40,807 bases of DNA from Candidatus Woesearchaeota archaeon (GCA_018221245.1 JAAOYH010000033.1:1-40807); one strand, 5' to 3'. Positions 18,541 through 38,079 are shown, counted from the stretch's first letter. The notes: generated by a model from the letters alone, not told the origin. Numbers and translations are program-made.

Positions 18541-19254
18541 CTAAGCATATCCTTTTTTTTCTATCTCTTCTGCCAACTCCTTCCCTCCGGAACGCACTAT
18601 CTTTCCCTCCTTGAACACATGGACCTTGTCCGGAATGACATACTCGAGTATCCTGTTGTAGTGTGTAATCAATAATACTCCTTGATCTTTCATCTTGTTA
18701 ATTCCGTCCGCCACTATTTTCAAAGCATCCACGTCAAGGCCCGAGTCTGTCTCATCTAGAATTGCTATCTTAGGATTAAGCATTAGCATCTGGAGTATCT
18801 CCATTCGTTTCTTCTCTCCACCAGAGAACCCTTGGTTGAGGTATCTGGTTGCAAATGAGTCATCAATCTTGAACTCGTCTAATTTTTCTCTCAATAGCTT
18901 ATGGAACTCTACGACATCGTAATCATTATCTGAAATTTCGTTGACAGCTGTTCGTAAAAAACTTTCTACCGTAACACCAGGTATCTCTACAGGATACTGG
19001 AAACTCAAGAACAGACCTTTCTTTGCTCGCTTGTCAGGCTCCATCTCTGTTATGTCTTCTCCGTCGAGAAAAATCTGTCCAGATGTAACTTCATACTTCG
19101 GATGCCCCATCAAAACGTTAGCCAGGGTTGATTTTCCTGAGCCGTTCGGGCCCATTATCGCATGCAACTCTCCTGATTCTATCACCAAATTGACTCCTTT
19201 GAGAATCTCTTTCCCATCTACGTTAGCATGCAAATCCTTAATCTCTAGTTTCAT
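18541..19254 (-). CDS. sufC: Fe-S cluster assembly ATPase SufC
   Basis: GPNGSGKST, the ABC signature FSGGEKKR and Walker B ILDETDSGLD. Its ATG overlaps the sufS::sufU stop (ATGA). Confidence 0.95.
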   Translation of the reverse strand: MKLEIKDLHANVDGKEILKGVNLVIESGELHAIMGPNGSGKSTLANVLMGHPKYEVTSGQIFLDGEDITEMEPDKRAKKGLFLSFQYPVEIPGVTVESFLRTAVNEISDNDYDVVEFHKLLREKLDEFKIDDSFATRYLNQGFSGGEKKRMEILQMLMLNPKIAILDETDSGLDVDALKIVADGINKMKDQGVLLITHYNRILEYVIPDKVHVFKEGKIVRSGGKELAEEIEKKGYA

Positions 19255-20843
19255 CTTAAGGCCTCCTGTACTGTCCTCAGTCCTAGAAGCGCGCACTTCA
19301 TCCTGACTGGGCCGATAGGTATTCCGAGCAGGGATGTAACATATTCTCTGCCCTTTTCACCTGACAGAGTTAGTATCTCATCAGTCTTCTTTCCCTGCAG
19401 CTTCTTGGTGAGCATACTCATCGCTGCCTGGCTTATCGCGCAGCCCTTTCCTTGGAACGCTATGTCCTTGATCTTTCCTTCGTCGACGATAACTGATACT
19501 TCTAACTCATCTCCACAGAACGGATTTCTCTCCATCTTTGTCGCTGTTGGTTCTGGGATAATTCGTTTATTCCTTGGCTTTCGCGCGTGCTCCCTTATGT
19601 TTTCAGCGTGGAGTATTTGTTCTTCTGAAAGGTTTCCCTCTCCCACCTGATCAGGATTGAAAACACCACCAGTCTTTACGTAAATCTCCAGAGCTTCTAT
19701 TAGTCTATCCAAATCTTCTTTCTCTGTATAGATTCCTATGCTTGCTCTCGTACTGGCATCTAGACCTAGCTCCTGGCAGTGCAACGGTTCTGCACAGTGG
19801 TGTCCCGCTCTGATGGCTATGTCCTGCTTGTCTAGGAACTCTGCTATGTCGTGAGGGTGTGCGTCCATTGTGAACGTGAAGATTCCTGTTCTTTCTTTTG
19901 GACCTAGAAGTGTCACTCCTTCCAGTTTTTCGAATTGACCAAGAAGGCGCTTGATCAGTTTATTTTCGTGTTCCTGCATCTTTTCATATCCTATTTCTAG
20001 AATGAACTCAGCTGCACTTCCGAGTCCTATAGCTCCTGCAATGTTTGGAGTTCCTGGCTCAAATTTATGTGGTGGTTTCGTGAACGTGGTCTGTTTTATC
20101 GTTACTTTCTCTACCTGTTCTCCTCCCCATGATGGCGGTTCCATCCTATCTAGCAAGTCCTTGTTGCCGTACAGGACGCCGATACCTGTAGGCCCGTACA
20201 TCTTGTGCCCGCTGAACGCGTACAGATCAGCTCCTAATTCTTTAACATCTACTGGAAGATGTGCTATTGCCTGCGCTCCATCCACTAATACTATAGCTCC
20301 ATGCTGATGCGCAATGCCTGCCAGCTCTTTCACGGGATTGATTGTTCCTAATACATTAGATACGTGCGTGAACGCTACAATTCTTGTATCGTTGTCTATC
20401 AGCTCTCTGGCTTTCTCCATGTCGAGCATCTGCTTGTTCTCTGTGAGTGGGATTGTTCGTAATTCCAAACCCTGTTTGTGCGCAAGCTGCTGCCAAGGTA
20501 TTAGGTTTGCGTGGTGCTCCATTGTTGTTATCACGATGTTACCTGAGTCGAATGTCGGGATTAATGATCTTGCTGCGAGGTTTATCGATGCAGTCGTTCC
20601 CGACGTGAAAATTATCTCTTCTGGCGATGCGTTGATTAGTTTTGCCACAGATTCTCTTGCGTTCTCATAACGTTCCGTGGCCTGCTCTCCAAGCCTGTGG
20701 ATAGCCCGATGCACGTTAGAGTAACCGTCTTCGTAGAACTCCAGGATTGCGTCTAATACTTTGTCGGGTTTCTGGCTGCTAGCTGCAGTGTCTAGGTAGG
20801 CCAGGTCAGGATTAGCTTTGAAGATGGGGAACAGTTCTTTCAT
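19251..20843 (-). CDS. sufS: Cysteine desulfurase SufS fused to a SufU/IscU-like domain
   Basis: The SufS part has FSGHKMYGPTGIGVLYG (PLP Lys) and RAGHHCAEPL (catalytic Cys). The C-terminal roughly 120 aa have NPFCGDE, GKGCAISQA and RMKCALL (U-type scaffold cysteines). The start MKELFPIF overlaps the sufD stop. Confidence 0.9.
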   Translation of the reverse strand: MKELFPIFKANPDLAYLDTAASSQKPDKVLDAILEFYEDGYSNVHRAIHRLGEQATERYENARESVAKLINASPEEIIFTSGTTASINLAARSLIPTFDSGNIVITTMEHHANLIPWQQLAHKQGLELRTIPLTENKQMLDMEKARELIDNDTRIVAFTHVSNVLGTINPVKELAGIAHQHGAIVLVDGAQAIAHLPVDVKELGADLYAFSGHKMYGPTGIGVLYGNKDLLDRMEPPSWGGEQVEKVTIKQTTFTKPPHKFEPGTPNIAGAIGLGSAAEFILEIGYEKMQEHENKLIKRLLGQFEKLEGVTLLGPKERTGIFTFTMDAHPHDIAEFLDKQDIAIRAGHHCAEPLHCQELGLDASTRASIGIYTEKEDLDRLIEALEIYVKTGGVFNPDQVGEGNLSEEQILHAENIREHARKPRNKRIIPEPTATKMERNPFCGDELEVSVIVDEGKIKDIAFQGKGCAISQAAMSMLTKKLQGKKTDEILTLSGEKGREYVTSLLGIPIGPVRMKCALLGLRTVQEALR

Positions 20844-21562
20844 GCGAACCTCTTGAGCAGCTCTTCTTTGACTTCCTGTGAGTGCTCTCCCATCTTGTCC
20901 AATACTTCGTCGAAGAATCCGTTGATTACCAGTTTCACTGCCACATCCTGAGGTATGCCTCTGCTTTTGAGGTAGAATAGCTTCTCTTCGTCCAATTGTC
21001 CTATCGAGACGCCGTGACTGCATCTTACGTCTTCGTTTTGTATCTCTAGATTTGGCTCTGCGTCCATCCTTGCTTCTTCTGATAGTAATAGTGTGTCTTC
21101 TTTCTGGTATGCATCGCAGTTTTTTGCGTTTGGAGCTATCCTTATTGTGCCAGAGTATTCTCCGTGGCTCTCGCAGAGCATAACTGCTCTAGTTAGCATG
21201 TTGCTTGTGGTGTGACTGGCCTTATGATCCATCTCGCTCGTCACCTTGAACTTGTCCGTGCCCGTTCCGAACAGAACACTGTGGAATTCCGCATCGGCTC
21301 CTTCGCCTTCTAAAGAACTGTGGGTGTGGCTCTCTCCAGTCCCGTGTGCTGCGTCCACCCAGAGAATTGTTGCGTCTTTTCCTAATAACGCTTTTCTAGT
21401 TGCATTTCCCGTCGTGAGACTGAAGTACTTGACTTTTGCATTAGGTTTTAGAGTTAGATTTATTGAGTACTTTCCTTCTCCTCTTTCCATTATCAGGAGC
21501 TCTTCGTTTTCCTTCACTTCTAGAGTTAGGTTTTCGCCGTTTTTTGGTTCGAGAAGTTTCAT
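20840..21562 (-). CDS. sufD: SufD-like Fe-S assembly protein (short form)
   Basis: 240 aa. C-terminal SufB/D signature EPNLEIQNEDVRCSHGVSIGQLDEEKLFYLKSRGI. Confidence 0.85.
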   Translation of the reverse strand: MKLLEPKNGENLTLEVKENEELLIMERGEGKYSINLTLKPNAKVKYFSLTTGNATRKALLGKDATILWVDAAHGTGESHTHSSLEGEGADAEFHSVLFGTGTDKFKVTSEMDHKASHTTSNMLTRAVMLCESHGEYSGTIRIAPNAKNCDAYQKEDTLLLSEEARMDAEPNLEIQNEDVRCSHGVSIGQLDEEKLFYLKSRGIPQDVAVKLVINGFFDEVLDKMGEHSQEVKEELLKRFA

Positions 21563-22974
21563 CCTATACTCCCCTCCATCTCTAGCTCTATGAGTTTGTT
21601 CAGTTCTACCGCATATTCTAAGGGTAGCTCTTTCACAATCGGTTCAATGAATCCTGAGACTATCAGTTGCTTTGCCCGCTCCTCGGATAATCCGCGAGAC
21701 ATCAGGTAGAATATCTCTTCCGTGCCTATCTTTCCGACAGTTGCCTCGTGTGCAACATCGACCTTGTTATTCAACACTTTCATCGTCGGATATGTGTTAC
21801 TGGTGCTGTTCTCTCCTACTAATAGAGCGTCGCATTCTACCGATACTTTGCTGTTAATTGCGCGAGGCATGACTTTCACCAGTCCTCTGTAAGTTGAAAT
21901 GCCTCCATCTTTGCTGATTGATTTTGCTGTGATTGTACTAGACGTGTCTGGTGCTGCGTGTATGACCTTGCTGCCAGTATCTTGGTTTTGATTCTTATCT
22001 GCAAAAGCTATTCCTAGTGAATCTGAACGTGCTCCTCTTCCTACTAATACAGAGCAAGGATAGAGCATAGTTACTCCACTACCCAAATTTCCGTTTATGA
22101 ATTCTATCAATCCGTTCTCCTGAACAATAGCTCTCTTGGTGTTCAGGTTGTATGTGTTCTTGCTCCAGTTCTCGACGGATGAGTATCTGACCCTTGCATT
22201 TTTCATCACATGTATTTCCACACACCCCGCGTGCAATGCAGAAGTTCCATATTGAGGGGCACTGCACCCTTCAACATAAGAAATTTCGCTGCCTTCGTCC
22301 GCTATGATTAGTGTATGCTCGAACTGCCCGCCTAATTCCACGTTCATTCTGAAGTATGCTTGGAGAGGTATCTTCACTTTGACATTCTTAGGTATGTAGA
22401 TGAACGTCCCTCCAGACCAAACGGCAGCGTGGAGCATGACAAACTTGTGATCGTTAATGGGAACGCATGATGTCATGAAGTATTTCTTTACTAAATCAGG
22501 ATACTTCTTCACTGCTGTGTCCATGTTGGTGAATACAACTCCTTGGTCTTCCCATTCCTTTTTCAGGTTGTGATAGACTACTTCACTATCATACTGTGCG
22601 CCAACACCTGACAATGACCTCTTCTCTGCTTCAGGGATACCTATGCGCTCGTATGTCTCTCTAATCTCATCAGGTAGATCTTCCCATTTGGTAGTCTCTT
22701 TTGCGTTGGGCTGGACGAAGAACTTTATCTTGTCCATGTCTTTGATTAAATTAGAAAGATCAGGTCCCCACTCAGGGAACCCTGTCTCTTGGTAGAGCTT
22801 CAGTCCTTTCAGACGTTTCTCTAGCATCCACTCAGGCTCTTCTTTGGATTTGCTGATATATCTGACAACATCTTCAGTGACCCCTGGAGGCGCCTCGTAG
22901 GCAGGCTTGTGCTTATCGGCGTGGTCGTACCTCTCACGGTCTATCTTGAACTCCTGCATGAGGGGAAGGCTCAT
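21559..22974 (-). CDS. sufB: Fe-S cluster assembly protein SufB
   Basis: 471 aa. Signature EATVGKIGTEEIFYLMSRGLSEERAKQLIVSGF, plus full-length SufB-like layout. Confidence 0.95.
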   Translation of the reverse strand: MSLPLMQEFKIDRERYDHADKHKPAYEAPPGVTEDVVRYISKSKEEPEWMLEKRLKGLKLYQETGFPEWGPDLSNLIKDMDKIKFFVQPNAKETTKWEDLPDEIRETYERIGIPEAEKRSLSGVGAQYDSEVVYHNLKKEWEDQGVVFTNMDTAVKKYPDLVKKYFMTSCVPINDHKFVMLHAAVWSGGTFIYIPKNVKVKIPLQAYFRMNVELGGQFEHTLIIADEGSEISYVEGCSAPQYGTSALHAGCVEIHVMKNARVRYSSVENWSKNTYNLNTKRAIVQENGLIEFINGNLGSGVTMLYPCSVLVGRGARSDSLGIAFADKNQNQDTGSKVIHAAPDTSSTITAKSISKDGGISTYRGLVKVMPRAINSKVSVECDALLVGENSTSNTYPTMKVLNNKVDVAHEATVGKIGTEEIFYLMSRGLSEERAKQLIVSGFIEPIVKELPLEYAVELNKLIELEMEGSIG

Positions 22975-23327
22975 TTAAAGCAGACATCACACCCTTTGGG
23001 GATGCCATCCTCTAGCTGTTCGTGAATTTTGCAGATGAGCCTCTTGTCCTTGACTTTCGCTATGATCTTCTGAGTCTCCTTGATCATGCTCTGCGTGTCT
23101 GTTATCCTCTTCGCAGCCTCTGTTAGAGCCTCTTTGACCTCATCAGGCAGTTTGACATGCTTTCCACGCTTCTTGGAGAAATACTGGCTCACGGCAGCCT
23201 CTGTGACGCCCAAGAGCTTGGATATCTCTTTTCCTGACTTTCCCTGTGCCCTCATGGCTACCGCCAGTTCCTTCCTTATCGTCGGAAGGATGTAGAATAC
23301 TTCCACTTCCTGGGGTTGTAATAGCAT
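22971..23327 (-). CDS. Small HTH regulator with a C-terminal Cys triad, first gene of the suf operon
   Basis: The HTH is sigma-70 region-4-like (GKSGKEISKLLGVTEAAVSQYFSKKRG). The C-terminus is LICKIHEQLEDGIPKGCDVCFK. Its stop overlaps the sufB start. Confidence 0.6.
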   Translation of the reverse strand: MLLQPQEVEVFYILPTIRKELAVAMRAQGKSGKEISKLLGVTEAAVSQYFSKKRGKHVKLPDEVKEALTEAAKRITDTQSMIKETQKIIAKVKDKRLICKIHEQLEDGIPKGCDVCFK

Positions 23328-23382
23328 CGTCTTAACTATGGTTAATCCCAGGTCGTTTAAAAAAGTTACTTAGAAGATAAAG

Positions 23383-23403
23383 AAAAAATAGAAAAAAAAG
23401 AAA
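23383..23403 (-). terminator. Oligo-T tracts ending the five-gene envelope cluster
   Basis: The minus strand reads tttcttttttttctattttttc, immediately after the stop at 23405-23407. Confidence 0.5.
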
Positions 23404-23404
23404 T

Positions 23405-24376
23405 TTACTCGCTTGGTACGCTCTGTACAATCAGCGGCTGCTCAATGAACTGTCCGTACCTATATGTGGTCTGGACGGTCATCACGTCAGTATACACCCT
23501 AGTCGAGGTGCTACTACCCGTAATGGTACAGGTGACTGTCTGAGGGCTTCCTGCATACAGAGTTATTACTCCACGGTTGGAGTTGCCTAGCCTTCCACAC
23601 TGAACAATTGCGCTTGGGTCTTCCATCTTGACGTCGACCTCAATCTTGTACTTGTTCGTGTTTCTGAAGCTTGGGTCACAGTCCTCTCCTGGCTCGCGGC
23701 CGAAAAACTCTCCTGGGCCTACGTGCTGGAGCTGGAAGTTTGCCTGTATCTTGCCCGAGTTGAGCGGGTTCTGGTTCACAGATGTGATGTGGATAGGTCC
23801 TCCAGAGTTGTGGACGAACTCTCTTGCGCCCGTAAGGGTACAGATTGTGCTGTCCTGGACATTCTCAATGATATCTGCCTTGAAGCACAGTTGAGTAGTT
23901 GCCCAGTTCTGGTAGTCGTAACAAGTCGTTCCTCTCAGGGTGAAGATGTCGCTACCACGGAGCTTGCCCTGGTAGTTCAGCCCATCAAAGATGAAGCTAG
24001 TGACGAGACCGCCGATGATAGTCCCGTCAAAGTTCTTCTGGGAACCCAAGAGGGACTCTTGGAGTGTCGCGTGCATCGCCGAATCTGAAGTGCCGAATGT
24101 AGACGGGTTGATACCCTCTATCTTGGCAGTCATATACGGGTTGTCTGTTCCAGGTCCAACATCTGCTTCTCCAACGTTTTCAGCTACGATGTTAAGCCCG
24201 AATGGGAAATTTCCACCGTCGTAGACTGCTGGAGGCGGCATGCCTTCCTGCAAGTACAGGTTAAGCGCGATGTTTCCGCCAATGAACGGACTCACGCGCG
24301 GGTCCCTAGATTGGGGAGCACAGCTCGCCAATAGAAGGAGTGCGATGATCATGGGAATGATGTAGTTCGGCTTCAT
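23405..24376 (-). CDS. Envelope-cluster protein E: lipobox-type secreted protein, paralog-family member
   Basis: MKPNYIIPMIIALLLLAS|C (LASC lipobox). Family motifs: IVAENVGEADV, TTCYDYQNWATTQLC, SGGPIHITSV and TTYRYGQFIEQPLIVQSV. The ATG at 24376 sits behind the SD gggtga; the ORF opens with GTG at 24385. Confidence 0.7.
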   Translation of the reverse strand: MKPNYIIPMIIALLLLASCAPQSRDPRVSPFIGGNIALNLYLQEGMPPPAVYDGGNFPFGLNIVAENVGEADVGPGTDNPYMTAKIEGINPSTFGTSDSAMHATLQESLLGSQKNFDGTIIGGLVTSFIFDGLNYQGKLRGSDIFTLRGTTCYDYQNWATTQLCFKADIIENVQDSTICTLTGAREFVHNSGGPIHITSVNQNPLNSGKIQANFQLQHVGPGEFFGREPGEDCDPSFRNTNKYKIEVDVKMEDPSAIVQCGRLGNSNRGVITLYAGSPQTVTCTITGSSTSTRVYTDVMTVQTTYRYGQFIEQPLIVQSVPSE

Positions 24377-24418
24377 GTCTTTCACCCTTGTGTTTCCTCA
24401 TAAAAAGCTTTTCGGTTT

Positions 24419-25753
24419 TTAAACTACGCGTTTGATTGTGACTTGGCGCATCTGCACCTCACTATATCCGTACCAAAGTTCCACCACTAGAGGTGACTGG
24501 TAGGCTGATTTTATTGAAGTGAATTGTATAGGATACGTGCAAGTGGTGCTTCCTGCCTGTGTGTTCGGGTCCAGCCTTATAGGGTTCGGATAGCAAGATA
24601 TACCTTCTCTTCCTCCACGACCTATGAGGCCTATGCTTCCTACACGAACATCACCGACGTAAACTGTGTTCTTGTGCTCCAACGTGACGCGGCCAGGATA
24701 GTACGGGCTGCATCTCTCTAGTTGCCCTGGATCCCACACTGTTCCTCTGCCTATGTTCTTGACATTAATTCTGAATATGATTTTTCTCGGGGAATTCTCT
24801 TGTTCTATGCTTGTTATTCCAACAGGAGCTCCATTTCCGCCATTCCAGGTCCTGCTCCTTGGATAGCATACCTTCCTGACGTCATCGAAAGGCGCAGGAT
24901 CTATGCATACTACTGGATCGGCGTAGGTCGTGTAGAGATAGCAGCTAGTCATCATGAACGTCTGCTGTGTCTGGTCTAACCCTATAGGCCAGTCCACTAT
25001 GTGCCCGTTATAGACTAGGAAATCCGATTCTCCTCCTGGGAACTCGTACGTATCTCCTGCCAAGAGGAACTCTATCCCTCCGTTTATGTTGAAGTTGATG
25101 CCTGATAGGATTTGGATTAATAGTATTCCGTTCTGGTACCACTCCACATTCGCATATAGGTCTCCAACGTTTATCCAGAAGAAGTTCTCCCCATATGATG
25201 AGTCATAACCAACGCTGAAATCCACGTTGTCTGATGGCCACCAGTTTTTGCTAAAGCGGTCGCCTATGCCCCGGATGAGGTCTGCGATGCTGTCGATCCT
25301 TATGCTCGTTCTGTCGCCCGCTATGACTTCTGTGCCGTCGCACCTGACGATCACACCGTACTCTCCAAACCCTATATTGCCCAAACCTATACCGCAAGCA
25401 CCCACGCCCCCATCCCTGATAGGGATTTCGTCGAACATTATCATGTTTGGATCGTAACCAGAGATGTAAATACCTCCTCGGCTATAGCTCGCTCCTTTAT
25501 TCCATAGCTCAACACCCAATGTGAAGTCGTTAGCAGATGTATCTTGTGCTCCATAATAGTAAAGTCTCGTCGGGAAGCTTACGTATCTGGCCTGAATGCC
25601 ATCGCTACCCTTATAGTATTTCGCGTACTCGTTAATTCTGCTGTTATTGTTTCTTCCACCCCACCAAGTACAACCCGAGAGCATGAGCACACAGAGCAAG
25701 AGTGCCACGACCATCGTTCTCGTCTTCACCACGTCGATATCTCTCCTTGTCAT
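24419..25753 (-). CDS. Envelope-cluster protein D: lipobox-type secreted protein, paralog-family member
   Basis: MTRRDIDVVKTRTMVVALLLCVLMLSG|C. Family motifs: GVELWNKGASY, MTSCYLYTTYADPVVC, GGNGAPVGITSIEQ, RINVKNIGRG and ELWYGYSEVQMRQVTIKRV. The ORF opens with TTG at 25786. Confidence 0.7.
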   Translation of the reverse strand: MTRRDIDVVKTRTMVVALLLCVLMLSGCTWWGGRNNNSRINEYAKYYKGSDGIQARYVSFPTRLYYYGAQDTSANDFTLGVELWNKGASYSRGGIYISGYDPNMIMFDEIPIRDGGVGACGIGLGNIGFGEYGVIVRCDGTEVIAGDRTSIRIDSIADLIRGIGDRFSKNWWPSDNVDFSVGYDSSYGENFFWINVGDLYANVEWYQNGILLIQILSGINFNINGGIEFLLAGDTYEFPGGESDFLVYNGHIVDWPIGLDQTQQTFMMTSCYLYTTYADPVVCIDPAPFDDVRKVCYPRSRTWNGGNGAPVGITSIEQENSPRKIIFRINVKNIGRGTVWDPGQLERCSPYYPGRVTLEHKNTVYVGDVRVGSIGLIGRGGREGISCYPNPIRLDPNTQAGSTTCTYPIQFTSIKSAYQSPLVVELWYGYSEVQMRQVTIKRVV

Positions 25754-25767
25754 GTTTTTAAATGTTG

Positions 25768-27486
25768 CTAGACCCACTGCTCCCAAGGCTTATTATTCAT
25801 GTGGGATCTGATAGTATCATAGTATTGTTGAGTCTTTACAGGATCGTTTCCGTTGTATCTCTTGATAGCTGTTGGCCAATCACCATACTGACCGTATAGT
25901 CTCTTAAGATACCTTGCACCATAATCAACGTTGTAGGAAGCTTCCTGTTCTCCTTTCGTGATATTATATGAAGGATGGTAATCTTCGTGAATCTGCAGTA
26001 TACCATGCGCCTTGCCCCCATCATTAGAACCTGAGGGCCAATTGTCCCAAGTACTCTCTTGGTATGCAATCGCCTTGAGTACGTCTTTAGGAAGGCTATA
26101 TCTCTTCTCCAAGATTTCAAGAAGTGAATTGATTTGTTGCTTGCTTGGGTCAGGCCCAACATTCGGAACCCTGGTCCCATCAGGCGTCATGATTGAGAAC
26201 AGCTCACCCTCAGATACTACAATCCGTTCGTCAGTACAACACTCCAGTGCATCAGGACAGTATCCTCCTGCAAAGCACCTGTTTGAGCCCTTAAGCTGTA
26301 CGCACCTGTCGAATGTGCAGGCACAGCTGAAATCGCTATTGATACCTCTAAGTTCAGAGGGAGCCTCATCAGGATGCTCAGCATAATACCTGCACTCTGT
26401 GTAAGCATATCCTTGATCGTCTTTTACAATATCATCTCCTCTGTACATGTAACCAGTATATTGTCCATCTGCGTAGACATTTAACTCAGGAATCACAGGC
26501 CTCTGGGTTCCTGGAACTCTGACTATCTCTAAATCCGCGGTTGCAGTAGTAGTATAGATGTATGACAAGTTCACTACAAGCGCCGTGACGAAGTTCTGTT
26601 TTCTCTGGTAAATTGGGTTGGTCAATTCATTCACAGGGACTGAGCACCTGACCTCTCCAGTTCCCATGTGCAACTTTACGAACTCGCTAGGCTGGCATTC
26701 AAGAGGAGTATCAAGAAGCCATGCTTGCACTCTGACTGTGTTGATTTCATCAGGAGATATGTCCTTTAGGAAACATGCAGTAGACATCTCGAGCCCATCA
26801 TGACCTATTATTCTACCCTCACCAACATCCTTCATGTGAATCACAAAGTGTGGCCTAATGCTCTCTATACCAAGAAGAGTATCAATAACTGGGAAGGACA
26901 TAACCTCTATGTAATTTATCGCTATTGGCGCACCTTGACCGCCCGAAAAACTTATGTCAACTTGGTTACAGGCCTGCTGTCTCGCGCCATCAGAATATAT
27001 GTCTGTGTTGATGCATACCTCAGCCCCTGCGGTTGTTGTGTATCTGTAACAAAGGCTAGTTATTATCTGTGTCGTGGGGCTCTCACGGGCACCATATATG
27101 GGCTTGACTGCGAAGCTGCTCTCGATAGGTATTGAAAACAATCGCTTATCTCCTATTGGGAATGATAAACTCTTGCCAGGTATGCTCTCATGATCCTGGT
27201 CAAGCGATAGGAAATCAAAAGGATAGTTGATGTTCTCCTGTACATATAGAGGGTCGGACGCGAAGCGGAGAATCATGTCGTCGTACAGCACGTCTCTCGC
27301 GCCCTCATTTGTTATCTCCACCTTGACTGGGAAAAGCGTTGCTTCGTATACCTTTTCAGGAGGTGCGTTCTCTGCGAACTCAATGACAAGACCCTCTGTG
27401 CCCTTGTACTTGACGAAATCTAGATTTCTTGGTCCACAAGCAGTCATAAAGAGAAGCAAGACTATGATTGCAAACACGTATTTCAT
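25768..27486 (-). CDS. Envelope-cluster protein C: paralog-family domain, Cys-rich linker and C-terminal SLT lytic transglycosylase domain
   Basis: MKYVFAIIVLLLFMTA|C. Family motifs: VEITNEGARDV, SLCYRYTTTAGAEVC, GGQGAPIAINYIEV, HMKDVGEG and LSYIYTTTATADLEIVRV. The linker carries 9 Cys. The SLT motifs are AIAYQESTW (catalytic E-S), GILQI, YGARYLKRLY and AIKRYNGN. Confidence 0.8.
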   Translation of the reverse strand: MKYVFAIIVLLLFMTACGPRNLDFVKYKGTEGLVIEFAENAPPEKVYEATLFPVKVEITNEGARDVLYDDMILRFASDPLYVQENINYPFDFLSLDQDHESIPGKSLSFPIGDKRLFSIPIESSFAVKPIYGARESPTTQIITSLCYRYTTTAGAEVCINTDIYSDGARQQACNQVDISFSGGQGAPIAINYIEVMSFPVIDTLLGIESIRPHFVIHMKDVGEGRIIGHDGLEMSTACFLKDISPDEINTVRVQAWLLDTPLECQPSEFVKLHMGTGEVRCSVPVNELTNPIYQRKQNFVTALVVNLSYIYTTTATADLEIVRVPGTQRPVIPELNVYADGQYTGYMYRGDDIVKDDQGYAYTECRYYAEHPDEAPSELRGINSDFSCACTFDRCVQLKGSNRCFAGGYCPDALECCTDERIVVSEGELFSIMTPDGTRVPNVGPDPSKQQINSLLEILEKRYSLPKDVLKAIAYQESTWDNWPSGSNDGGKAHGILQIHEDYHPSYNITKGEQEASYNVDYGARYLKRLYGQYGDWPTAIKRYNGNDPVKTQQYYDTIRSHMNNKPWEQWV

Positions 27487-29276
27487 CTGACTCTCACCAC
27501 CGAGCTCTCTTCTATAGTATACTTGTAGTGTGCTACGGCGATGAAGCTCCTCATGACCTTGTCGCCTAGATTTGCGAGGTTCATGGCTTGCTGGGAGTCA
27601 TCTATACCTAGCTTGCATGTTATGCTAGTGAATCCTGTTATTGGCCCCGTCTCCAGATTCGTGAAAATGTAGTTAGTATAGTCTGGATCATTCTCGTCCT
27701 GTTCCTGGCCACACACTTCATAGTTGTCTTTACAACGATCACAATCATATACGTAGAACGGTCTCGGGACCTTGAGCTCGTACTTATCTACCTTGTTTAG
27801 ACTGCCACCTCCTCTTTGAGGGTCTAGCATTATCCCTATCCTGGTCCCTTCTGGTAAGTAAGGGTCTTCCTGGATTATCCTAATAGGCTGCGGCGTCCCA
27901 CCCATACCAAGAGATACTGGACCTGAAGTGTATATCGCCTCGGGCTCTGCATCTATGTCTAATTCTTTCCTGACGTCTAATCCTTGTCTCGCCATGTTTC
28001 TCACACGCTCGTCATCCACAAAAGTGTATGTGATATAAGACCATGTCTGGAATGGGAATGTGGCCTGGGCTTTGGCTCTGTAGTTCCCTTTCTGGAAAGG
28101 CTTCAGGAATGTGCATTCGAAAGTCCCGGATGTTCCGTAAGGAATATCTAGGATTATAGGATCAGGCACTGCTTCCTGGATATCGCGACCTTCCACCACA
28201 CATGTAGGCATTACCCGGACGCTATCGCTCTCCTCCAAGAATGACTTGGCATACACGCTACCATAGAGCACCACAGTACTCGTGTTCGTGAACTCAGGGT
28301 CTATAGTCCTGAAATTCTCTATTACCACCCCCATTTCCCCTTTGGAATTCTTCTCTACTCTCCCTGTATAGTATGCTCCTGGATTGAGTGTCTGGTTGTA
28401 TACATCATAGATGTTGTCTCCTAAAGAGTTGAACTTCTCCCACAGAAGGGTCCACATCCCAGTCACAGGATTTACAGTATTCTCTGCAGGGTCAAGCCAG
28501 TCAGGCATGAGGTCTACCCCTGTGCCAGTAGCAGCAGACATGAATACAATTATCAGAGGGATAGCAACTACAACAAATATATAGATTCTGAACGCCTTCG
28601 CAGCACCCTCTTTTTCTTGAGCGATTCTCTGCCAGAAATATACAGGCCAAATGGGGATGTATAGTGCTACAAACCCAGAAACGATATTGACTGCATCATA
28701 CGACTGATAAGTACTTGTAATCTCTGGAAGGATATACACCATAGCAGCGAATAAAGATATACCTACCAAGCTCTGAACACGCCTCTCTCCAGATACAAAG
28801 AACCAGGCAATAGCAATTGAACCTGACATCGCGATATAGACAGGAAGCATTAGCAACTTAGGAGCACCTGAAAAGATATACACCAACATATGAGCCATCA
28901 ATGCTATGAAAAAGAACAGCTCCGCCAAGGACATAGTATCCTTGCTAGACTTCTTGCCTTTACCCCCTCCCCCTTTCCTTGTGAGTGTTGCAGTTCCAGG
29001 TGTAGCGCCTGGAGTTACTCCGCGCTTCAGGCTATCCTCCATTGCTTTTGCCCGTCTCTCTTCTGCTATTGCCTGCCTTTCTGCAGCATCTGCTAGTCTA
29101 CTTTCGCCTTTTGCTTCTGAAGCCTGAGATCTTGCCATACTTTCTTGGGCATTGCTATTCCTATGGAGTTCCTCTTCTATCTCTCTTTGAAGTTTCTTCT
29201 CATACTCCTCAGCCGCTTTCTCCTTCTCGTCGGCCTCTTTAATCTTCTTGTCGAAATCGTCAGGCAAGCCTACCAC
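27483..29276 (-). CDS. Envelope-cluster protein B: cytoplasmic charged coiled coil, five TM helices and an extracellular paralog-family domain
   Basis: The first roughly 120 aa are E/K/A-rich and end in GGGGKGKKSSK. Five hydrophobic helices follow. The C-terminal roughly 320 aa carry VVIENFRTIDPEF, the TSGPVSLGMGGTPQPIRIIQ motif and AHYKYTIEESSVVRVR. It has a GTG start, and its stop overlaps the start of gene C (ATGA). Confidence 0.65.
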   Translation of the reverse strand: MVGLPDDFDKKIKEADEKEKAAEEYEKKLQREIEEELHRNSNAQESMARSQASEAKGESRLADAAERQAIAEERRAKAMEDSLKRGVTPGATPGTATLTRKGGGGKGKKSSKDTMSLAELFFFIALMAHMLVYIFSGAPKLLMLPVYIAMSGSIAIAWFFVSGERRVQSLVGISLFAAMVYILPEITSTYQSYDAVNIVSGFVALYIPIWPVYFWQRIAQEKEGAAKAFRIYIFVVVAIPLIIVFMSAATGTGVDLMPDWLDPAENTVNPVTGMWTLLWEKFNSLGDNIYDVYNQTLNPGAYYTGRVEKNSKGEMGVVIENFRTIDPEFTNTSTVVLYGSVYAKSFLEESDSVRVMPTCVVEGRDIQEAVPDPIILDIPYGTSGTFECTFLKPFQKGNYRAKAQATFPFQTWSYITYTFVDDERVRNMARQGLDVRKELDIDAEPEAIYTSGPVSLGMGGTPQPIRIIQEDPYLPEGTRIGIMLDPQRGGGSLNKVDKYELKVPRPFYVYDCDRCKDNYEVCGQEQDENDPDYTNYIFTNLETGPITGFTSITCKLGIDDSQQAMNLANLGDKVMRSFIAVAHYKYTIEESSVVRVR

Positions 29277-29328
29277 CTCGTTCGAAGAAATTCCTCACCT
29301 CATGTGTGATAGGATAATTCATGCATAC

Positions 29329-30597
29329 TCATACCAGCTCGATCCTCAGTTCAGATATGTCCAAACGGTCTATATGCGGAATCACCTGAATCGTGTTCGG
29401 CCCCGGATTCAGAATCGCAGGGTCGATGATTGCCTGGTAGTAGATATCCTGGGTGCTGAAAGACTGAACAAAGCCATCTATGATGACCTCTCCTGATTTC
29501 ACATTTCTATAATCCGCGAACCTCATCGTCAGGCGGATGAACCGTTCTCCCGCATCTACGATATCAAACATATCTCTTGGCAAATTGAAGTAGTAGACAG
29601 GATAGTCATTCTCAGTCATCTCCACGACAACCTTGATTCTGTCAACTACATACTGTCCTCCATCCGAGGCGAACAGCAGGCGGTTCTCACCTTCCCTGAG
29701 GAAGTCTTTAGGAATATCTGTAGTGAATCTTATTCCGCAATCGATGAACCCTGTGTAGAGCAGATTAGGAATTACCCTGCTCATATTGTACTCATCACGT
29801 ACCATGCGCGAGTTCATGTGTATCGTGAGTCTTCCTGAGTTCCTAGGGTCACAATCTGGGACGAACTCTAGGCGAGCCTGCTCGTATCCTGCTATCTCAC
29901 GCTCCTGGATGCTGAATGTCTGCTCACTCACAGAGCCAGAAGTGTCTATTAGGTCTCCGCTAATCAGTATGTTATGAAGGATGTACGTGTTCGGTTGCCA
30001 GAAAGCTATCCCAACATCTGTAGTCCTAAATGTAAGCTTGTTGTCCCCGTCCTGGATATAATCCAGAGGAAGAGGTATGGGCTGAGGAGTTCTCTCTCTC
30101 ACAGGCCGCTCGTAGAGAAGATTGCCGTTCAGGTAGACTGCTAGAGCACCGTACCCTGACTGGTCTACGTTGAAGCTCAGTAAGTAGTTACGCCCCGCCG
30201 CTTTGTTAGCACGAAAGGATATGTCCAGGTCTCTCCTGGCGAATACGCCATTCTTCACGATTGCCGTGTCTATACTCTGTATCTCCTGGGTCATCACCCG
30301 CGTGAATATCGTCGCGCTTGGAATCGAATGTTCCATCACAGGGGATTTGAGAAGCCTCAAGGAGCCCGGTGTCTCGGTCATGATGAGCACAGATCCATAG
30401 TTGACTGAGTTATACCCTCCCGTGTATCCTGAGTTCCAATTGTTGAACCCTCCTGATCCATCCTCACCGAAAAGCAGTGCGTTTCTATCCTCTGGAGACA
30501 GGAAAAGAAGGTATAGGATAATGAGTCCCGCGATGGTCGCGACGAGAACCGCTGCGCCGGATGCATTTTGTGCTCGACGAGAGAGCTGCCTAGTCAT
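29329..30597 (-). CDS. Envelope-cluster protein A: N-terminally anchored protein with three tandem beta-sandwich (lectin-like) repeats
   Basis: MTRQLSRRA|QNASGAAVLVATIAGLIILYLLFL is a signal anchor and possibly a class III signal. Three roughly 100-aa repeats each end in GxNxL/IxF/V plus a hydrophobic strand: DGDNKLTFRTT..YILHNILISG; EGENRLLFASDGGQYVVDRIKVVV; PGPNTIQVIPHIDRLDISELRIELV. Confidence 0.65.
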   Translation of the reverse strand: MTRQLSRRAQNASGAAVLVATIAGLIILYLLFLSPEDRNALLFGEDGSGGFNNWNSGYTGGYNSVNYGSVLIMTETPGSLRLLKSPVMEHSIPSATIFTRVMTQEIQSIDTAIVKNGVFARRDLDISFRANKAAGRNYLLSFNVDQSGYGALAVYLNGNLLYERPVRERTPQPIPLPLDYIQDGDNKLTFRTTDVGIAFWQPNTYILHNILISGDLIDTSGSVSEQTFSIQEREIAGYEQARLEFVPDCDPRNSGRLTIHMNSRMVRDEYNMSRVIPNLLYTGFIDCGIRFTTDIPKDFLREGENRLLFASDGGQYVVDRIKVVVEMTENDYPVYYFNLPRDMFDIVDAGERFIRLTMRFADYRNVKSGEVIIDGFVQSFSTQDIYYQAIIDPAILNPGPNTIQVIPHIDRLDISELRIELV

Positions 30598-30620: not shown

Positions 30621-30630
30621 TATATAAATA
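30621..30630. promoter_or_regulatory. Single shared TATA element between divergent gene A and pelota
   Basis: The tatataaata motif is centred 28-29 nt from both ATG 30597 (minus) and ATG 30654 (plus). The intergenic region is only 56 nt. Confidence 0.5.
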
Positions 30631-31691: not shown

Positions 31692-32530
31692 AGGATCTCG
31701 TCAAGCTTGTGAAGTCCAAAAAGGAGCTTGAGAATCTGGATGACCAGTACGTGCAGGAAAAGTTAGAGAGATATTTCGAAGCACATCCTAAGATCCTGGA
31801 GAAACTGGCAGCCAGCAAGACTATTGAGCAATTCACGCGAAGCAAAGTGTACAAAGAGATGCTGAAACATCTCAGAAAATCTCTAAGGACCGTCTACGGG
31901 GTATTCCAGAAAGGCGACAGATACGGGCTCCTGAATATGATTGCTAAAGAATCTGACCTTGATAGGCAAAAAATGCTGGTTGGGGAACTCTTGCAGACTC
32001 ACACCAGCACAAAAGAACGCCTCGCGGACTACTACATAATCTACAAAGAGCTATCTGAAAGATTGCCCGCCCCTAACATAGTAATAGATCTTGGCTGTGG
32101 ACTCAATCCACTCAGTCATCAGTACATGGAACGTCATGGCTGGTCTCCCAAATGGATAGCAACAGATATCAGCACAGCCGACATGGAGTTCTTGCAGACA
32201 TGTTTCGACACACTTGACATTCCTGGAAAGACTCTGAGACTTGACCTTACAAAGGACTACGAGAAAATAAAAAATCTCAAAGGCGACGTCACGTTCCTGT
32301 TCAAACTATTGGATTCTTTAGAAGAAGTAGAAAGACACATCAGCTACAAGATATTCGACAACATCACTACGCCTTACATCGTAACTAGCTTTCCAACCAG
32401 GTCTCTAGGGGGTAAAAAAACAATAGCAAAAGCATCCAGGACTTGGTTTGAGCGATTATTGAAGCGTAAAAATCTGAAGTGGGAAACCTTCAACACAGAG
32501 AATGAGCTGTTCTATGTGATTAAAACTTGA
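31682..32530 (+). CDS. FmrO/Rmt/ArmA-family 16S rRNA (guanine1405-N7)-methyltransferase homolog
   Basis: The blocks HTSTKERL, VIDLGCGLNPL, FLFKLLDSLEEVER, TSFPTRSLGGKK and ELFYVIK match the conserved blocks of RmtB/ArmA as I remember them. The gene overlaps the pelota stop by 10 nt. Confidence 0.7.
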   Translation: MAIEDLVKLVKSKKELENLDDQYVQEKLERYFEAHPKILEKLAASKTIEQFTRSKVYKEMLKHLRKSLRTVYGVFQKGDRYGLLNMIAKESDLDRQKMLVGELLQTHTSTKERLADYYIIYKELSERLPAPNIVIDLGCGLNPLSHQYMERHGWSPKWIATDISTADMEFLQTCFDTLDIPGKTLRLDLTKDYEKIKNLKGDVTFLFKLLDSLEEVERHISYKIFDNITTPYIVTSFPTRSLGGKKTIAKASRTWFERLLKRKNLKWETFNTENELFYVIKT

Positions 32531-33407
32531 TAAATCCAAATATCAGATGATGATCCGAGCCGTACAATCCTTCCTTATTCCCCACCACTTCTCCCGACGA
32601 GAAAATATCATCCAGACCGAACTTAGAATTCGGAAAAACACTATCAAATCTTAGGTTGAGCTTTTTCAATCCCGATTCCAAATACCTCGAAGAGGTAGGA
32701 TTGAAATCACCCCCAACAATAACAAAGTCATCATTCTGTGCATCCACCATCTTCTCAAGATGTGCATACTGTTGCTTTCTCAACCATGGCGGTGACCAGG
32801 GCTCAAAGTGAATGTTGTAGATTCCAACAGTGCCAGTCTCAGTTCGTAATTTAATATACGGAAGGGAGCGTTGTACTGTAGCTATGTTTCCTAATGGTTT
32901 GTTGTTCATCTCCGGAAGAGGAAAGACCTTCCGGTCCATAGCAGGGTGTCTTGTTGCAGTAAGCATCCCATAACTTCTGTCCTTCATTGAACCCTCTTTT
33001 TTCTCCGTGTGCGTCGGAACATACAGCAGATCATATCCATCCAGGTATTTCTTGAGGCTTTCTTTCTTCCAGAAATCTAATGGGACCTCTTGCAGTAATA
33101 GCACGTCTGGCTTATGGGTCTCAAGATAATTCGAAAGTGCTGAAACTACCGCGTTCTCATTTACTGATCTCCAGATGTTCCAAGAAATTACTTTCACCTG
33201 ATCCGGAAAAAAACCATAGCTTAACGCACCAGGAATGAAGTTCCAATCATCAGGAATGTTGACTGGCAAGTTTTTTCCAGTCATATACCTGTACTGAGCC
33301 TGAGATACACCTGTGATTGCACGCTTTACCGTCGGCAAAGTTGATAGCGAAGCTAACCCTATAGTCCCTGCCAGCACGGCCGCCGCCCATCTCTTTCGCG
33401 AAGACAT
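32520..33407 (-). CDS. Secreted or anchored endonuclease/exonuclease/phosphatase (EEP) family protein
   Basis: N-terminal hydrophobic signal, then WNIW, LLLQEV, GGDFN and the C-terminal GSDHHLI motif. Confidence 0.75.
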   Translation of the reverse strand: MSSRKRWAAAVLAGTIGLASLSTLPTVKRAITGVSQAQYRYMTGKNLPVNIPDDWNFIPGALSYGFFPDQVKVISWNIWRSVNENAVVSALSNYLETHKPDVLLLQEVPLDFWKKESLKKYLDGYDLLYVPTHTEKKEGSMKDRSYGMLTATRHPAMDRKVFPLPEMNNKPLGNIATVQRSLPYIKLRTETGTVGIYNIHFEPWSPPWLRKQQYAHLEKMVDAQNDDFVIVGGDFNPTSSRYLESGLKKLNLRFDSVFPNSKFGLDDIFSSGEVVGNKEGLYGSDHHLIFGFIKF

Positions 33408-35304: not shown

Positions 35305-36852
35305 ATGGGGGTTGTGAGTGAAGAGATTCTGGCGCGACTGCATCCTTTAGAGGTAAAGGTCTTACCACACCTGAAAGATGGCATTCTTCTCTCGACATTG
35401 GCTAAAAATGCGAAACTCCAAGAAGTAGAGGCGATGCGCGCATGCCAGTGGCTGGAGAACAAGAAAGCTCTAACACTAGAACAGGCCACAACTCACACTT
35501 TAACACTAGACGTCAACGGCAAGAAAGCCATCAAAAAAGGCATGCCAGAGATGCGCTTCCTTCTCGCCATAAAGAAGACCGCAAAGACTCAGGATCAGTT
35601 GGAAAAAACAGGCCTTGACAGACAAGAGATAGGAGTCAGTATCGGATTGTTGAAGAAAGCAGGCCTTCTCAATATGAAAGGGAAGAAGTTTACAATAACT
35701 GCAAAAGGCAAGAAGCTCGATGCAAAGAAATCACCCGAAATAATAATTCTAAAGAAACTAGGAAAATCCAAGAGCCTAGAAACTCTTCCTGCGAAAGATC
35801 AAGAACTAGTAAAAAATCTCAGAAAAAGAAGACAATACCTAATCATAAAAGAGCACAAAGGTAGAAAAATCAAGCTCACTGAACTAGGCAAAGAACTCGC
35901 AAAGACAGATGTAAAGAAGCTCAAGTTCGAAGAAAGGATAACAAAAGAAGACTTGGAGACAGGAGCCTGGAAGAAGAAAAAATATAGGGCCTACGATGTT
36001 TCTGTTAATGTTCCTTCAATTCCGCAAGGAAAGTTACACTTCGTACAAGAAGCCATAGATTACATCAGAAAAATCTGGGTGGAGATGGGCTTCGAAGAGA
36101 TGACTGGAGACATGTGCCAGTCAGCATTCTGGGATTTGGATGCATTGTTCGTCCCGCAGGATCATCCCGCAAGAGAGGTCCAAGACACATTCTACTTATC
36201 ACATCCTGAAAAAACCAACTTCGATAAAATTGCGTTCGAAAGAGTAAGAGACGTGCATGAAAACGGCGGCAACACAGGTAGCAAAGGATGGGAGTATGAT
36301 TACAGCAAGGAAGAGGCAGAACAATTATTGCTAAGGACCCACACAACAGTTCTATCAGCACAGACTCTCTGGAAAATCAGAAACGGAGAAGCGAATCTTC
36401 CTGGAAAATATTTTTCTGTCAGTAAGGTCTTCCGCAATGAAAAACTAGATTGGAAACATCTGTTCGAGTTCCACCAGGTTGAGGGAATCGTCGTCGATAA
36501 AAACGTAACTTTCGCGCAACTCATAGGATATCTGAAGATCTTCTTCGCGAAGATGGGTTTCGAGAAAATCAGGCTGCGCCCTCATGAGTTCCCCTACACG
36601 TACTGTTCCGTTGAGGTGGATGTTTGGAATGATAGGAAGCAGCAGTGGATAGAGTTAGGCGGAGCAGGAATCTTCAGGCCTGAAGTGACCAAGACACTTA
36701 TAGGAGAAGAGATCCCTGTGCTTGCTTGGGGTCTTGGAATGGAAAGAATAATAGTGGAGTACTTTGACATCCATGATCTCCGAGACCTATACCGTAATGA
36801 TATCAAGCAATTAAGAGAGATGAAGCGCTTCATCAAATATTCCCAAGCTTAA
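35305..36852 (+). CDS. pheS: Phenylalanine--tRNA ligase alpha subunit (archaeal type)
   Basis: 515 aa. N-terminal wHTH repeats are followed by the class II core: FVPQDHPAREVQDTFY, LLRTHTT, FRNE, FHQVEG and GAGIFRPEV. Confidence 0.95.
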   Translation: MGVVSEEILARLHPLEVKVLPHLKDGILLSTLAKNAKLQEVEAMRACQWLENKKALTLEQATTHTLTLDVNGKKAIKKGMPEMRFLLAIKKTAKTQDQLEKTGLDRQEIGVSIGLLKKAGLLNMKGKKFTITAKGKKLDAKKSPEIIILKKLGKSKSLETLPAKDQELVKNLRKRRQYLIIKEHKGRKIKLTELGKELAKTDVKKLKFEERITKEDLETGAWKKKKYRAYDVSVNVPSIPQGKLHFVQEAIDYIRKIWVEMGFEEMTGDMCQSAFWDLDALFVPQDHPAREVQDTFYLSHPEKTNFDKIAFERVRDVHENGGNTGSKGWEYDYSKEEAEQLLLRTHTTVLSAQTLWKIRNGEANLPGKYFSVSKVFRNEKLDWKHLFEFHQVEGIVVDKNVTFAQLIGYLKIFFAKMGFEKIRLRPHEFPYTYCSVEVDVWNDRKQQWIELGGAGIFRPEVTKTLIGEEIPVLAWGLGMERIIVEYFDIHDLRDLYRNDIKQLREMKRFIKYSQA

Positions 36853-36906: not shown

Positions 36907-38079
36907 ATGACCTTCAATCTGTTCGATTTGCACTCGAAAACTGACGTCCCAAGAAGCTGGATTTGGGTAGAAATAAGAAGTGAAATACTTAGAAAAAAAT
37001 ACCTGAAAGCTCTTGAGAAATCAACCCAAAAAGTGCTCGCTACAGAAATTGCTAAAAATCTTTTCTGTGGTTTGAGCACCATTGAAAAGCATCTCATCAG
37101 ACTGAAATCAGAATGTACATCCATTCCTCTGCCTGTTCTCATCGAACTGTGCACGCTCTTAGACATTTCATCACGAACAGCTAACACCTGGATGTTGAAC
37201 CTATTCTCGAATCCCGATAAGACAGGTAAGAAAATCAAAGCAATGAAGAAATGCTCACACACATTCGCGAAAATCGTAGGCGCATTTCTTGCAGATGGAT
37301 ACATGCAAAAAGAAAGGTACACGTACAGATTAAAGTTGACAGATGGAGAAGAAACATCGGTAAAAGCATTTGAGTCATGGATTAGAGTAACATTTGGCAT
37401 CTCAGGAAGGGTCTACTACTGCAGACAGAATAACATGTGGTATTGTTGGTTCACAAGCAAAATCATAGGCAGATACTTTGAGAATATTTTCGACATAAAA
37501 CCAGGTGCCAAATCAAGTATCGTTAAGAAGCCAGAACTCATTCGTACGAGAGAACAAGAACGGGCTTTTGTTCTAGGTTTTCTGATGTTTGATGGAGGTG
37601 TAAAAACATCAGGAATGGTTGCCGTGACATCGAAAAGCAAAATGATTATAGATGATATCGAGAAGATACTGAAAAAGAACTGTATAAACGTGAAGAAAAC
37701 TTACAGTCCAGTAAAAGATGCTTTCTTGTTGGAGTCAAGGAGTGGAAGAGACAAGGAACAACTCAAAAAATGGCTGAGATACTTCGAACCAGGCACAAGA
37801 AAACATAAAGCATTACAGTTTTTCATCGATGGATCATACTTGGAGCGGGGGGAACTACAGGAAATTTTTCCCATCCACTATCGCGCACGCGTATCAATCT
37901 CATTAATACACTCCATTCTTCAAAAAAAATCCGGGACTGTGGAGGATATTGTTTCAGTATTAAAGAAAAAAGACATCTTTGTCAGTAAGAACACACTCTA
38001 CAAATACCTATATCTTCTCAACAAGGCTAAACTCGTTAATAAATCTCCTAGAGCGCCAGTCATCTATTCTATAGGGTAA
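36907..38079 (+). CDS. Free-standing double-motif LAGLIDADG homing-endonuclease-like protein flanked by HTH/wHTH domains
   Basis: The two LAGLIDADG motifs are FAKIVGAFLADGYM and RAFVLGFLMFDGGV, about 95 aa apart. There is an N-terminal HTH (VLATEIAKNLFCGLSTIEKHLIRL) and a C-terminal wHTH-like segment (TVEDIVSVLKKKDIFVSKNTLYKYLYLL). Confidence 0.75.
   Translation: MTFNLFDLHSKTDVPRSWIWVEIRSEILRKKYLKALEKSTQKVLATEIAKNLFCGLSTIEKHLIRLKSECTSIPLPVLIELCTLLDISSRTANTWMLNLFSNPDKTGKKIKAMKKCSHTFAKIVGAFLADGYMQKERYTYRLKLTDGEETSVKAFESWIRVTFGISGRVYYCRQNNMWYCWFTSKIIGRYFENIFDIKPGAKSSIVKKPELIRTREQERAFVLGFLMFDGGVKTSGMVAVTSKSKMIIDDIEKILKKNCINVKKTYSPVKDAFLLESRSGRDKEQLKKWLRYFEPGTRKHKALQFFIDGSYLERGELQEIFPIHYRARVSISLIHSILQKKSGTVEDIVSVLKKKDIFVSKNTLYKYLYLLNKAKLVNKSPRAPVIYSIG

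Follow-up and report, generated by a model that had tools for sequence, protein, structure and literature searches.

A conserved five-gene cell-envelope cluster of Woesearchaeota with paralogous, predicted lipoproteins and an exchangeable, putatively murein-directed tip

Introduction

Woesearchaeota are abundant and uncultured, and we know of no host or contact mechanism for these archaea. Among the closest described systems are SLT-bearing extracellular proteins of Woesearchaeota and Pacearchaeota, which were independently proposed to act on bacterial walls (Castelle et al., 2021; PMC8204110). We describe here a five-gene cluster, A to E, at positions 23,405 to 30,597 of a 40,807-nucleotide (nt) stretch of DNA from a Candidatus Woesearchaeota archaeon (GCA_018221245.1, JAAOYH010000033.1:1-40807); this whole stretch, at its full length, is called the window below. 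The operon is not described by Castelle et al. (2021; PMC8204110), and we found no description of it in the literature.

The giant proteins of fam00969/Module 98 (PMC8204110) resemble the product of gene C in that they come from the same lineage, carry an exported murein-type lytic transglycosylase domain, and have the bacterial wall as their proposed target. They are, however, single proteins of up to ~3000 amino acids (aa), whereas in the cluster considered here the SLT domain is a small, exchangeable tail on one lipoprotein of a five-gene operon, and it is lacking from most orthologs.

Results

Five co-directional genes are conserved as a unit

The original prediction, made from the window sequence alone, placed five co-directional genes on one strand, and the open reading frames (ORFs) agree with it both in their coordinates and in the spacing of the A-B, B-C, C-D and D-E junctions, which are +52, -4 (ATGA), +14 and +42 nt. 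The genes and the elements that bound them are:

Gene A: 29329-30597, minus strand, ORF of 422 aa
Gene B: 27483-29276, minus strand, ORF of 597 aa with a GTG start (594 aa in the NCBI annotation)
Gene C: 25768-27486, minus strand, ORF of 572 aa
Gene D: 24419-25753, minus strand, ORF of 444 aa
Gene E: 23405-24376, minus strand, ORF of 323 aa
Putative TATA box, TTTATATA: 30621-30628, minus strand, read in the sequence ~24 nt 5' of the ATG of A
Oligo-T terminator block (T8, T6, T6): 23359-23399, minus strand, read in the sequence directly 3' of the stop codon of E

Related loci were sampled at one genome per GTDB species, which gave 74 loci; three more were added via two D homologs and two duplicates were removed, for a total of 75 (single loci bear labels such as L001). 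The genes A-B-C-D-E are complete and in this order in 41 of the 75, the remaining loci being cut by contig ends or having a B that is below threshold or too divergent to score, and a rearranged gene order was found in none (0/75). The genes are also co-oriented across related genomes, so that the idea of five genes forming one unit that recurs in relatives is well borne out. The cluster in the window has housekeeping genes on either side (suf genes, pelota, FmrO, TrmB and pheS/pheT), and the pelota-FmrO-TrmB-pheS-pheT neighborhood is seen again in relatives, with pelota divergent upstream of the cluster in 22 of the 50 loci that have enough flanking sequence.

A word-indexed search returned 191 homologs of D at 37-62% identity, of which the named ones belong to Woesearchaeota, Nanoarchaeota or Nanobdellota. 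D itself has the same sequence as a protein annotated as hypothetical in a Candidatus Woesearchaeota archaeon, in agreement with the DPANN setting that had been proposed. An exhaustive profile search with the module common to C, D and E gave 2210 clusters at 50% identity, 1614 of them with E<=1e-10; ten of these clusters were sampled, and all four that carried a name are from Woesearchaeota or Nanoarchaeota. The protein families of the cluster are undescribed and large, and the operon appears to be confined to this lineage. Separately, many loci with a D that is 40-60% identical (L004, L005, L010, L011 and others) are labeled 'uncultured Methanosarcinales archaeon'; their gene content is Woesearchaeota-like, and these labels are probably automated mislabels.

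The spacer between the divergent genes A and pelota is 56 nt long and holds the TTTATATA box, the placement of which fits a leaderless or near-leaderless archaeal transcript of the operon and is compatible with the single shared promoter that had been suggested. The expectation of a unit free of long internal T runs and closed by an oligo-T end also held: the entire 7.2-kb unit from A to E was scanned and contains no run of six or more Ts, and the T8, T6 and T6 runs all lie <=46 nt past the stop codon of E. The ATG of E, at 24376, has a GGGTGA Shine-Dalgarno-like motif just 5' of it. There is no discontinuity in GC content.

C, D and E are paralogs and predicted lipoproteins

Judged from their sequences, C, D and E are clearly paralogs. 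Their mutual BLASTP scores are 53, 41 and 34 bits, and hhalign comparisons of profiles made from family alignments built from related genomes give probabilities of 100% for C-D (E 5e-46), 99.8% for C-E (E 4e-28) and 99.6% for D-E (E 5e-25). D is the best-conserved subunit and has, in addition to the shared domain, an insertion at aa ~118-230; E is the minimal form of the domain. In C, the domain occupies the N-terminal part of the protein:

C, aa 18 to ~330, nt 26497-27435, minus strand: shared double beta-sandwich domain, assigned by paralogy

Each of the three carries a lipobox signal, as had been claimed: MTAC in C (Cys17), LSGC in D (Cys28) and LASC in E, a lipobox being defined as the pattern [LVI][ASTVI][GAS]C, its Cys conserved, at the end of a signal peptide. 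When orthologs were scanned for the pattern [LVIF]xxC at ~residue 22-25, lipobox-like signals turned out to be nearly universal (C, 50/54; D, 65/66; E, 69/70), and in the alignments of C and of D no sequence departs from the lipobox Cys. Together with the pairs of invariant Cys, the near-universal lipobox Cys points to an extracellular location; consistent with this, nine Cys are invariant in the D alignment, as would fit an extracellular, disulfide-bonded protein.

An AlphaFold2 model of D (predicted local distance difference test score, pLDDT, 84.9) starts with a signal helix and continues with two beta-sandwich domains. When it was compared with the PDB using Foldseek, only tandem immunoglobulin (Ig)-like modules were retrieved (among them the legs of integrin alpha, Ig domains of PrgB, and cohesin dyads; TM-scores 0.12-0.16), and a comparison with BFVD gave nothing at E<=1e-3. 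Neither A, B, D and E nor the N-terminal 330 aa of C match a known family in Pfam, NCBIfam, or PDB sequences (family profiles of A, B and D being the queries for the last), where anything else was sub-threshold noise, so the earlier statement that the SLT tail of C is the only recognizable family stands. A Pfam scan of ten atypically long members of the superfamily found a fibronectin type III (FnIII) domain in one and otherwise nothing. As modeled, the shared domain is a pair of generic Ig-like beta-sandwiches, a fold class rather than a well-characterized family, and a fold this generic carries no functional information.

The number of these lipoproteins varies. A second E paralog directly follows E (A-B-C-D-E-E2) in one sub-lineage (L001, 12443-13477; L012, 12474-13496; L013, L015, L017, L025, L038, L039 and others), and an extra D paralog stands ahead of D in L022 and L027, so clusters differ in how many paralogous lipoprotein subunits they encode. 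Four assemblies have two D-family loci each (L023/L068, L026/L069, L056/L074 and L041/L077). The second clusters L068 and L069 have a longer A-B spacing and no detected E.

The tip of C is a position for interchangeable, predicted murein-directed enzymes in one clade

Beyond the shared domain, C continues into two further segments, both of which had been anticipated as a Cys-rich linker and an SLT domain:

C, aa ~355-425, minus strand: Cys-rich stalk, from the sequence
C, aa 459-546, nt 25849-26112, minus strand: SLT lytic transglycosylase domain, from Pfam

The SLT match (PF01464) has an E-value of 2.4e-9 and scores 37.2 bits against a gathering cut-off of 21.3. Family-1 lytic transglycosylases are marked by a catalytic Glu in an E-S motif, a GLMQ-like motif and an AYNxG-like motif, and the corresponding E-S (YQES), GILQ(I) and (R)YNGN can be read in the tail of C. 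By these sequence hallmarks it is a genuine SLT domain, and a murein-cleaving activity is predicted for it.

All but two of the C orthologs have a Cys-rich segment past the shared domain, with 10-40 Cys, and the minimal tail is 80-95 aa long. A recognized hydrolase lies beyond this segment in 8 of 54 orthologs, and it is not always the same one: an SLT tail is found in the window, L007 and L009, a DUF2272 tail in L004 and L009, a 3D domain tail in L062 and L008, and a Peptidase_M23 tail in L069, which is the second copy of the cluster that a distant genome carries. We take the 3D domain to be an MltA/YuiC-type transglycosylase module and M23 to be a lysostaphin-type endopeptidase module. DUF2272 is a papain-like family in the NlpC/P60-CHAP-amidase group and includes a Tse1-type peptidoglycan amidase (PMC10318531). 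A search of PDB sequences with the L004 DUF2272 tail and with the C tail of the window produced nothing useful.

The distribution of these tails is uneven. Each of the closest relatives of the window (D identity 50-61%) has a peptidoglycan-directed tail, the class of which differs from one to the next (SLT, 3D, DUF2272), and in most lineages the tip of C is a Cys-rich stalk with no enzyme. The domain assignments thus identify the C tip as a single position for interchangeable, predicted murein-directed enzymes in one clade, a feature reported here for the first time. The change of hydrolase class at this position among the relatives of the window supports a murein-directed activity for the proposed complex of this organism.

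B combines a predicted membrane base with an Ig-like ectodomain

The E/K-rich N-terminus and five transmembrane (TM) helices that had been claimed for B are both apparent in its sequence and in an AlphaFold2 model (pLDDT 80.8), which was built from a shallow alignment (homolog searches gave at least 9 and at least 22 proteins). The protein divides as follows:

B, aa 1 to ~110, minus strand: E/K-rich N-terminus, predicted to be cytoplasmic, from alignment and model
B, aa 117-250, nt 28527-28928, minus strand: five TM helices, from the AlphaFold2 model
B, aa ~303-597, nt 27486-28370, minus strand: ectodomain of two beta-sandwiches with conserved Cys, from the AlphaFold2 model

The E/K-rich segment varies in length among orthologs, and a linker helix modeled at low confidence joins the TM helices to the ectodomain, which has invariant Cys in the alignment. 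The positively charged loops of B fit an N-in/C-out topology.

It had been proposed that B shares the domain of C, D and E. The C/D/E part of that proposal stands (hhalign 99.6-100%) and the B part is statistically weak: the B family scores 9% against C (E 0.0035) and 8.5% against a merged C/D/E profile (P 0.004), though the latter alignment is collinear over 236 columns. It runs along the full domain and matches up motifs named in the original prediction: it pairs TW-YVTYTFVD of B with CY-Y-T---VCID, and GPV-IGM with GAPVAIT, and includes the terminal Y-Y strand. In each of the two models, that of B and that of D, there are two beta-sandwiches, one long strand in the center and another at the end, and Foldseek comparison of the B model with the PDB gives only generic tandem Ig/FnIII matches, in a list that overlaps that of D (integrin legs, RbmA, protein 4.2). 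We conclude that the B ectodomain is probably, if unproven, a divergent fourth copy of the C/D/E domain.

In nine loci (L028, L030, L034-L036, L049, L052, L057 and L074) A is ~560-600 aa long, and a gene in the position of B, at or below threshold relative to the B of the window, occupies a ~2.3-kb gap between A and C. On sequence comparison, B is by far the fastest-evolving subunit.

A is an anchored triple-repeat protein

The description of A as an anchored protein with three repeats is confirmed by one TM segment and by hhalign, which relates the repeats to one another at 97% (R1-R2), 92% (R2-R3) and 64% (R1-R3):

A, aa 15-33, minus strand: single TM anchor, from a reading of TM segments
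A, aa ~120-215, 216-328 and 329-422, minus strand: three homologous beta-rich repeats, from hhalign

In hhalign comparisons A shows no relationship to B-E (probability <=0.5%). Some of its orthologs have weak, sub-threshold Pfam matches to carbohydrate-binding module (CBM)-like, BetaGal_ABD2 and CBM_35 models, with which a galactose-binding-like jelly-roll fold of the repeats would be compatible. Ahead of the hydrophobic helix, the N-terminus has a conserved motif, [KR][KR][GA]Q-x-A-[ST], present in its strict form in 27 of 56 family members and followed by LFLxPx[DE]R. The motif looks like a prepilin-type (class III) cleavage site, and we regard it as an open lead. With the TM anchor of A, the TM helices of B, and the lipoboxes of C, D and E, all five products are exported or membrane proteins, as had been expected.

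Other genes in the window

Outside the cluster the window is made up of housekeeping genes: a proteasome-type AAA ATPase, TldD/PmbA and tRNA methyltransferases, sufC/B/D/S-U and an Mrp/NUBPL ATPase, and pelota, TrmB regulators, an FmrO methyltransferase and pheS/pheT; tRNA genes and Rfam families were not detected in the window. Four further genes deserve comment:

36907-38079, plus strand: 390-aa ORF with a LAGLIDADG_3 match (E 7e-7), between pheS (35305-36852) and pheT (38121-39773)
32520-33407, minus strand: 295-aa Exo_endo_phos family protein with a hydrophobic N-terminus (MSSRKRWAAAVLAGTIGLASL...)
22971-23327, minus strand: small helix-turn-helix protein (Sigma70_r4_2/HTH_23-like) with a C-terminal Cys cluster (CKIH...CDVC), between the terminator of E and sufB
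19251-21023, minus strand: 590-aa ORF that, as listed, overlaps sufD by 184 nt

The first may represent the insertion of a free-standing, homing-endonuclease-like gene into the pheST pair. The second is possibly a secreted or anchored nuclease or phosphatase, which would suit nucleotide scavenging by an archaeon with a reduced genome. The helix-turn-helix protein is probably a regulator of the suf operon and outside the envelope cluster, and the true start of the 590-aa ORF is probably an internal MKELFPIF, in which case the product would be a SufS cysteine desulfurase that ends, as a C-terminal fusion, in a SufU/NifU-like segment.

Discussion

A candidate surface complex that displays a murein hydrolase

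The reading that we favor, and to which we give an even chance of being right, is that the products of A-E form a lineage-specific envelope complex or scaffold which, in the clade of the window, displays a murein hydrolase acting on the wall of a contacted bacterium. B would be the membrane base, with its N-terminus in the cytoplasm, five TM helices, and an ectodomain on the outside. C, D and E would be lipid-anchored paralogs of one disulfide-rich double beta-sandwich module and would assemble, with the B ectodomain, into a hetero-oligomeric scaffold at the outer surface of the membrane. A, held by its N-terminal helix, would add three carbohydrate-binding-like jelly-roll repeats and with them a capacity to bind glycans. 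The Cys-rich stalk of C would project from the scaffold, its tip serving as a swappable cargo position that, here and in close relatives, would be occupied by a peptidoglycan-cleaving enzyme (here the SLT lytic transglycosylase). With such a cargo, the complex would hold a murein hydrolase at the archaeal surface against the wall of a contacted bacterium. Of this model, the sequences establish the layout of the genes, the C/D/E paralogy, the lipoboxes, the conserved order, the SLT domain and the modular C tails.

Several observations weigh against this reading. Both the co-transcription of A-E, read from the sequence, and the physical assembly of their products are inferred, and the link of B to C, D and E is statistically weak. 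The carbohydrate-binding label of A comes from sub-threshold Pfam matches in a few orthologs, and the Foldseek TM-scores of the D and B models (0.1-0.3) speak of a generic beta-sandwich fold. No host is known for this organism. In addition, only 8 of 54 C orthologs have a hydrolase, so wall cleavage is not a conserved core function and the core role of the cluster lies elsewhere. The original suggestion that the apparatus acts on a partner's wall is thereby divided: murein-directed tails throughout the clade of the window speak for it, and the idea of breaching as the core function fails because the SLT domain is not a conserved part of the cluster. The signal-subunit role suggested for B and the adhesin role suggested for A are hypothetical. 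We consider it doubtful that the operon is a previously unrecognized, lineage-defining host-contact machine, in which the cytoplasmic coiled coil of B would be linked to an extracellular four-paralog scaffold, A would dock the complex onto a partner cell, and the C tip would open the partner's wall. If it were, hosts could be told apart by the cargo that C carries, and murein hydrolases would mark bacterial hosts.

Other readings give the same proteins different tasks. The Ig-like lipoproteins and B might instead tile the surface as a structural cell wall or S-layer-type scaffold, the hydrolase tail being an add-on of one clade. Archaeal S-layer proteins are commonly Ig-like beta-sandwich proteins, and the lineage-wide occurrence of the cluster, its housekeeping region, its strong-looking TATA box, and the lack of an enzyme in most orthologous clusters would all suit such a role. 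We nevertheless judge it unlikely: there are just 0-2 N-glycosylation sequons per protein, no match to an S-layer family in Pfam or NCBIfam, a level of identity in D (40-60% across distant genomes) that is above usual S-layer conservation, and a near-1:1 operon of five genes that is unlike the known one- or two-protein S-layers. Equally improbable to us is a role in feeding, in which glycans would be captured and degraded at the surface with a Sus-like logic and the C tail would digest detrital peptidoglycan rather than the wall of a living partner. No transporter was found inside the cluster or beside it, either in the window or in those relatives that were inspected, B does not match transporter families, and the enzyme is missing from most clusters; these points outweigh for us the resemblance of tandem beta-sandwich lipoproteins and a lipoprotein hydrolase to SusE/F/G, the weak CBM-like matches in A orthologs, and the fact that the C tails cover both the glycan and the peptide bonds of murein.

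The N-terminal motif of A raises the idea of an accessory module of a type IV filament (TFF)-like structure, since [KR][KR][GA]-Q-x-A-[ST] is conserved, precedes ~20 hydrophobic residues, and is similar to the KG|Q prepilin sites found in the pilins of methanogens. The components that define a TFF are its ATPase, platform protein and prepilin peptidase (bioRxiv 10.64898/2026.04.22.720090), none of which was found by Pfam in the cluster or its conserved neighborhood (A-E, flanks, and orthologous loci). Moreover, Pfam Class_IIIsignal does not match A, and its Gln stands six or seven small or polar residues away from the hydrophobic core. We have not adopted the filament reading, which seems to us very unlikely, since it would require an ATPase and a platform that are missing here. 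Finally, a PHROGs search links the SLT domain at the end of C with families of phage lytic tail proteins, as might be expected of a cassette derived from a mobile element or virus, for example an entry or lysis module. This is, however, the only PHROGs match among the five proteins; there are no relatives in IMG/VR, none in BFVD for the D model (E<=1e-3), and no PADLOC hits. Throughout the lineage the cluster keeps its place on the chromosome, surrounded by housekeeping genes, and GC content shows no break. A viral or mobile origin was rejected on these grounds, its remaining probability being close to nil. From the fixed gene order, the recurring housekeeping context and the absence of viral relatives we conclude that the cluster is a core, vertically inherited operon rather than a mobile element, found so far only in Woesearchaeota/Nanoarchaeota.

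For the question of how Woesearchaeota make contact, a conserved five-gene envelope operon offers a specific candidate for the surface machinery. The exchangeable hydrolase tip in one clade suggests, under the reading that we favor, that some Woesearchaeota interact with bacterial, not archaeal, partners, and the type of C tail could serve as a genomic marker of the type of partner. Defining these families would also improve the annotation of thousands of 'hypothetical' DPANN proteins.

Relationship to known systems

The best Foldseek matches of the D and B models are the thigh and calf domains of integrin alpha, Vibrio RbmA, the MSCRAMM ClfB, and the Ig-like domains of PrgB. Two consecutive beta-sandwiches, as in D and B, are typical of adhesins and matrix scaffolds. 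Membership in these families is a different matter: with TM-scores of 0.1-0.3 and identities of 6-10%, the likeness is one of fold class only.

In their organization, the genes are reminiscent of SusE/SusF/SusG of Bacteroidota and of the Csc/WxL clusters of lactobacilli and enterococci, in which co-encoded surface proteins of tandem beta-sandwiches, sometimes accompanied by a hydrolase, are proposed to bind glycans. A WxL-interacting protein is found low in the Foldseek list of D (rank 40, probability 0.30). Unlike these systems, the cluster has no SusC/D-type transporter, no WxL or LPXTG motifs, and no detectable homology to them, and it belongs to an archaeon with a single membrane.

Phage lytic tail proteins, the VirB1-type transglycosylases of type IV secretion systems, and the polymorphic amidase effectors of type VI secretion systems, Tse1 among them, all place a wall-cutting domain on a structural carrier, as C does. 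Although the carrier in C is an archaeal lipoprotein with no sequence relationship or specific fold relationship to these machines, and although the cluster has no secretion ATPase or injection apparatus, the likeness extends to the cargo itself, in that hydrolase classes (lytic transglycosylase, M23, NlpC/P60-like) are exchanged at the same position.

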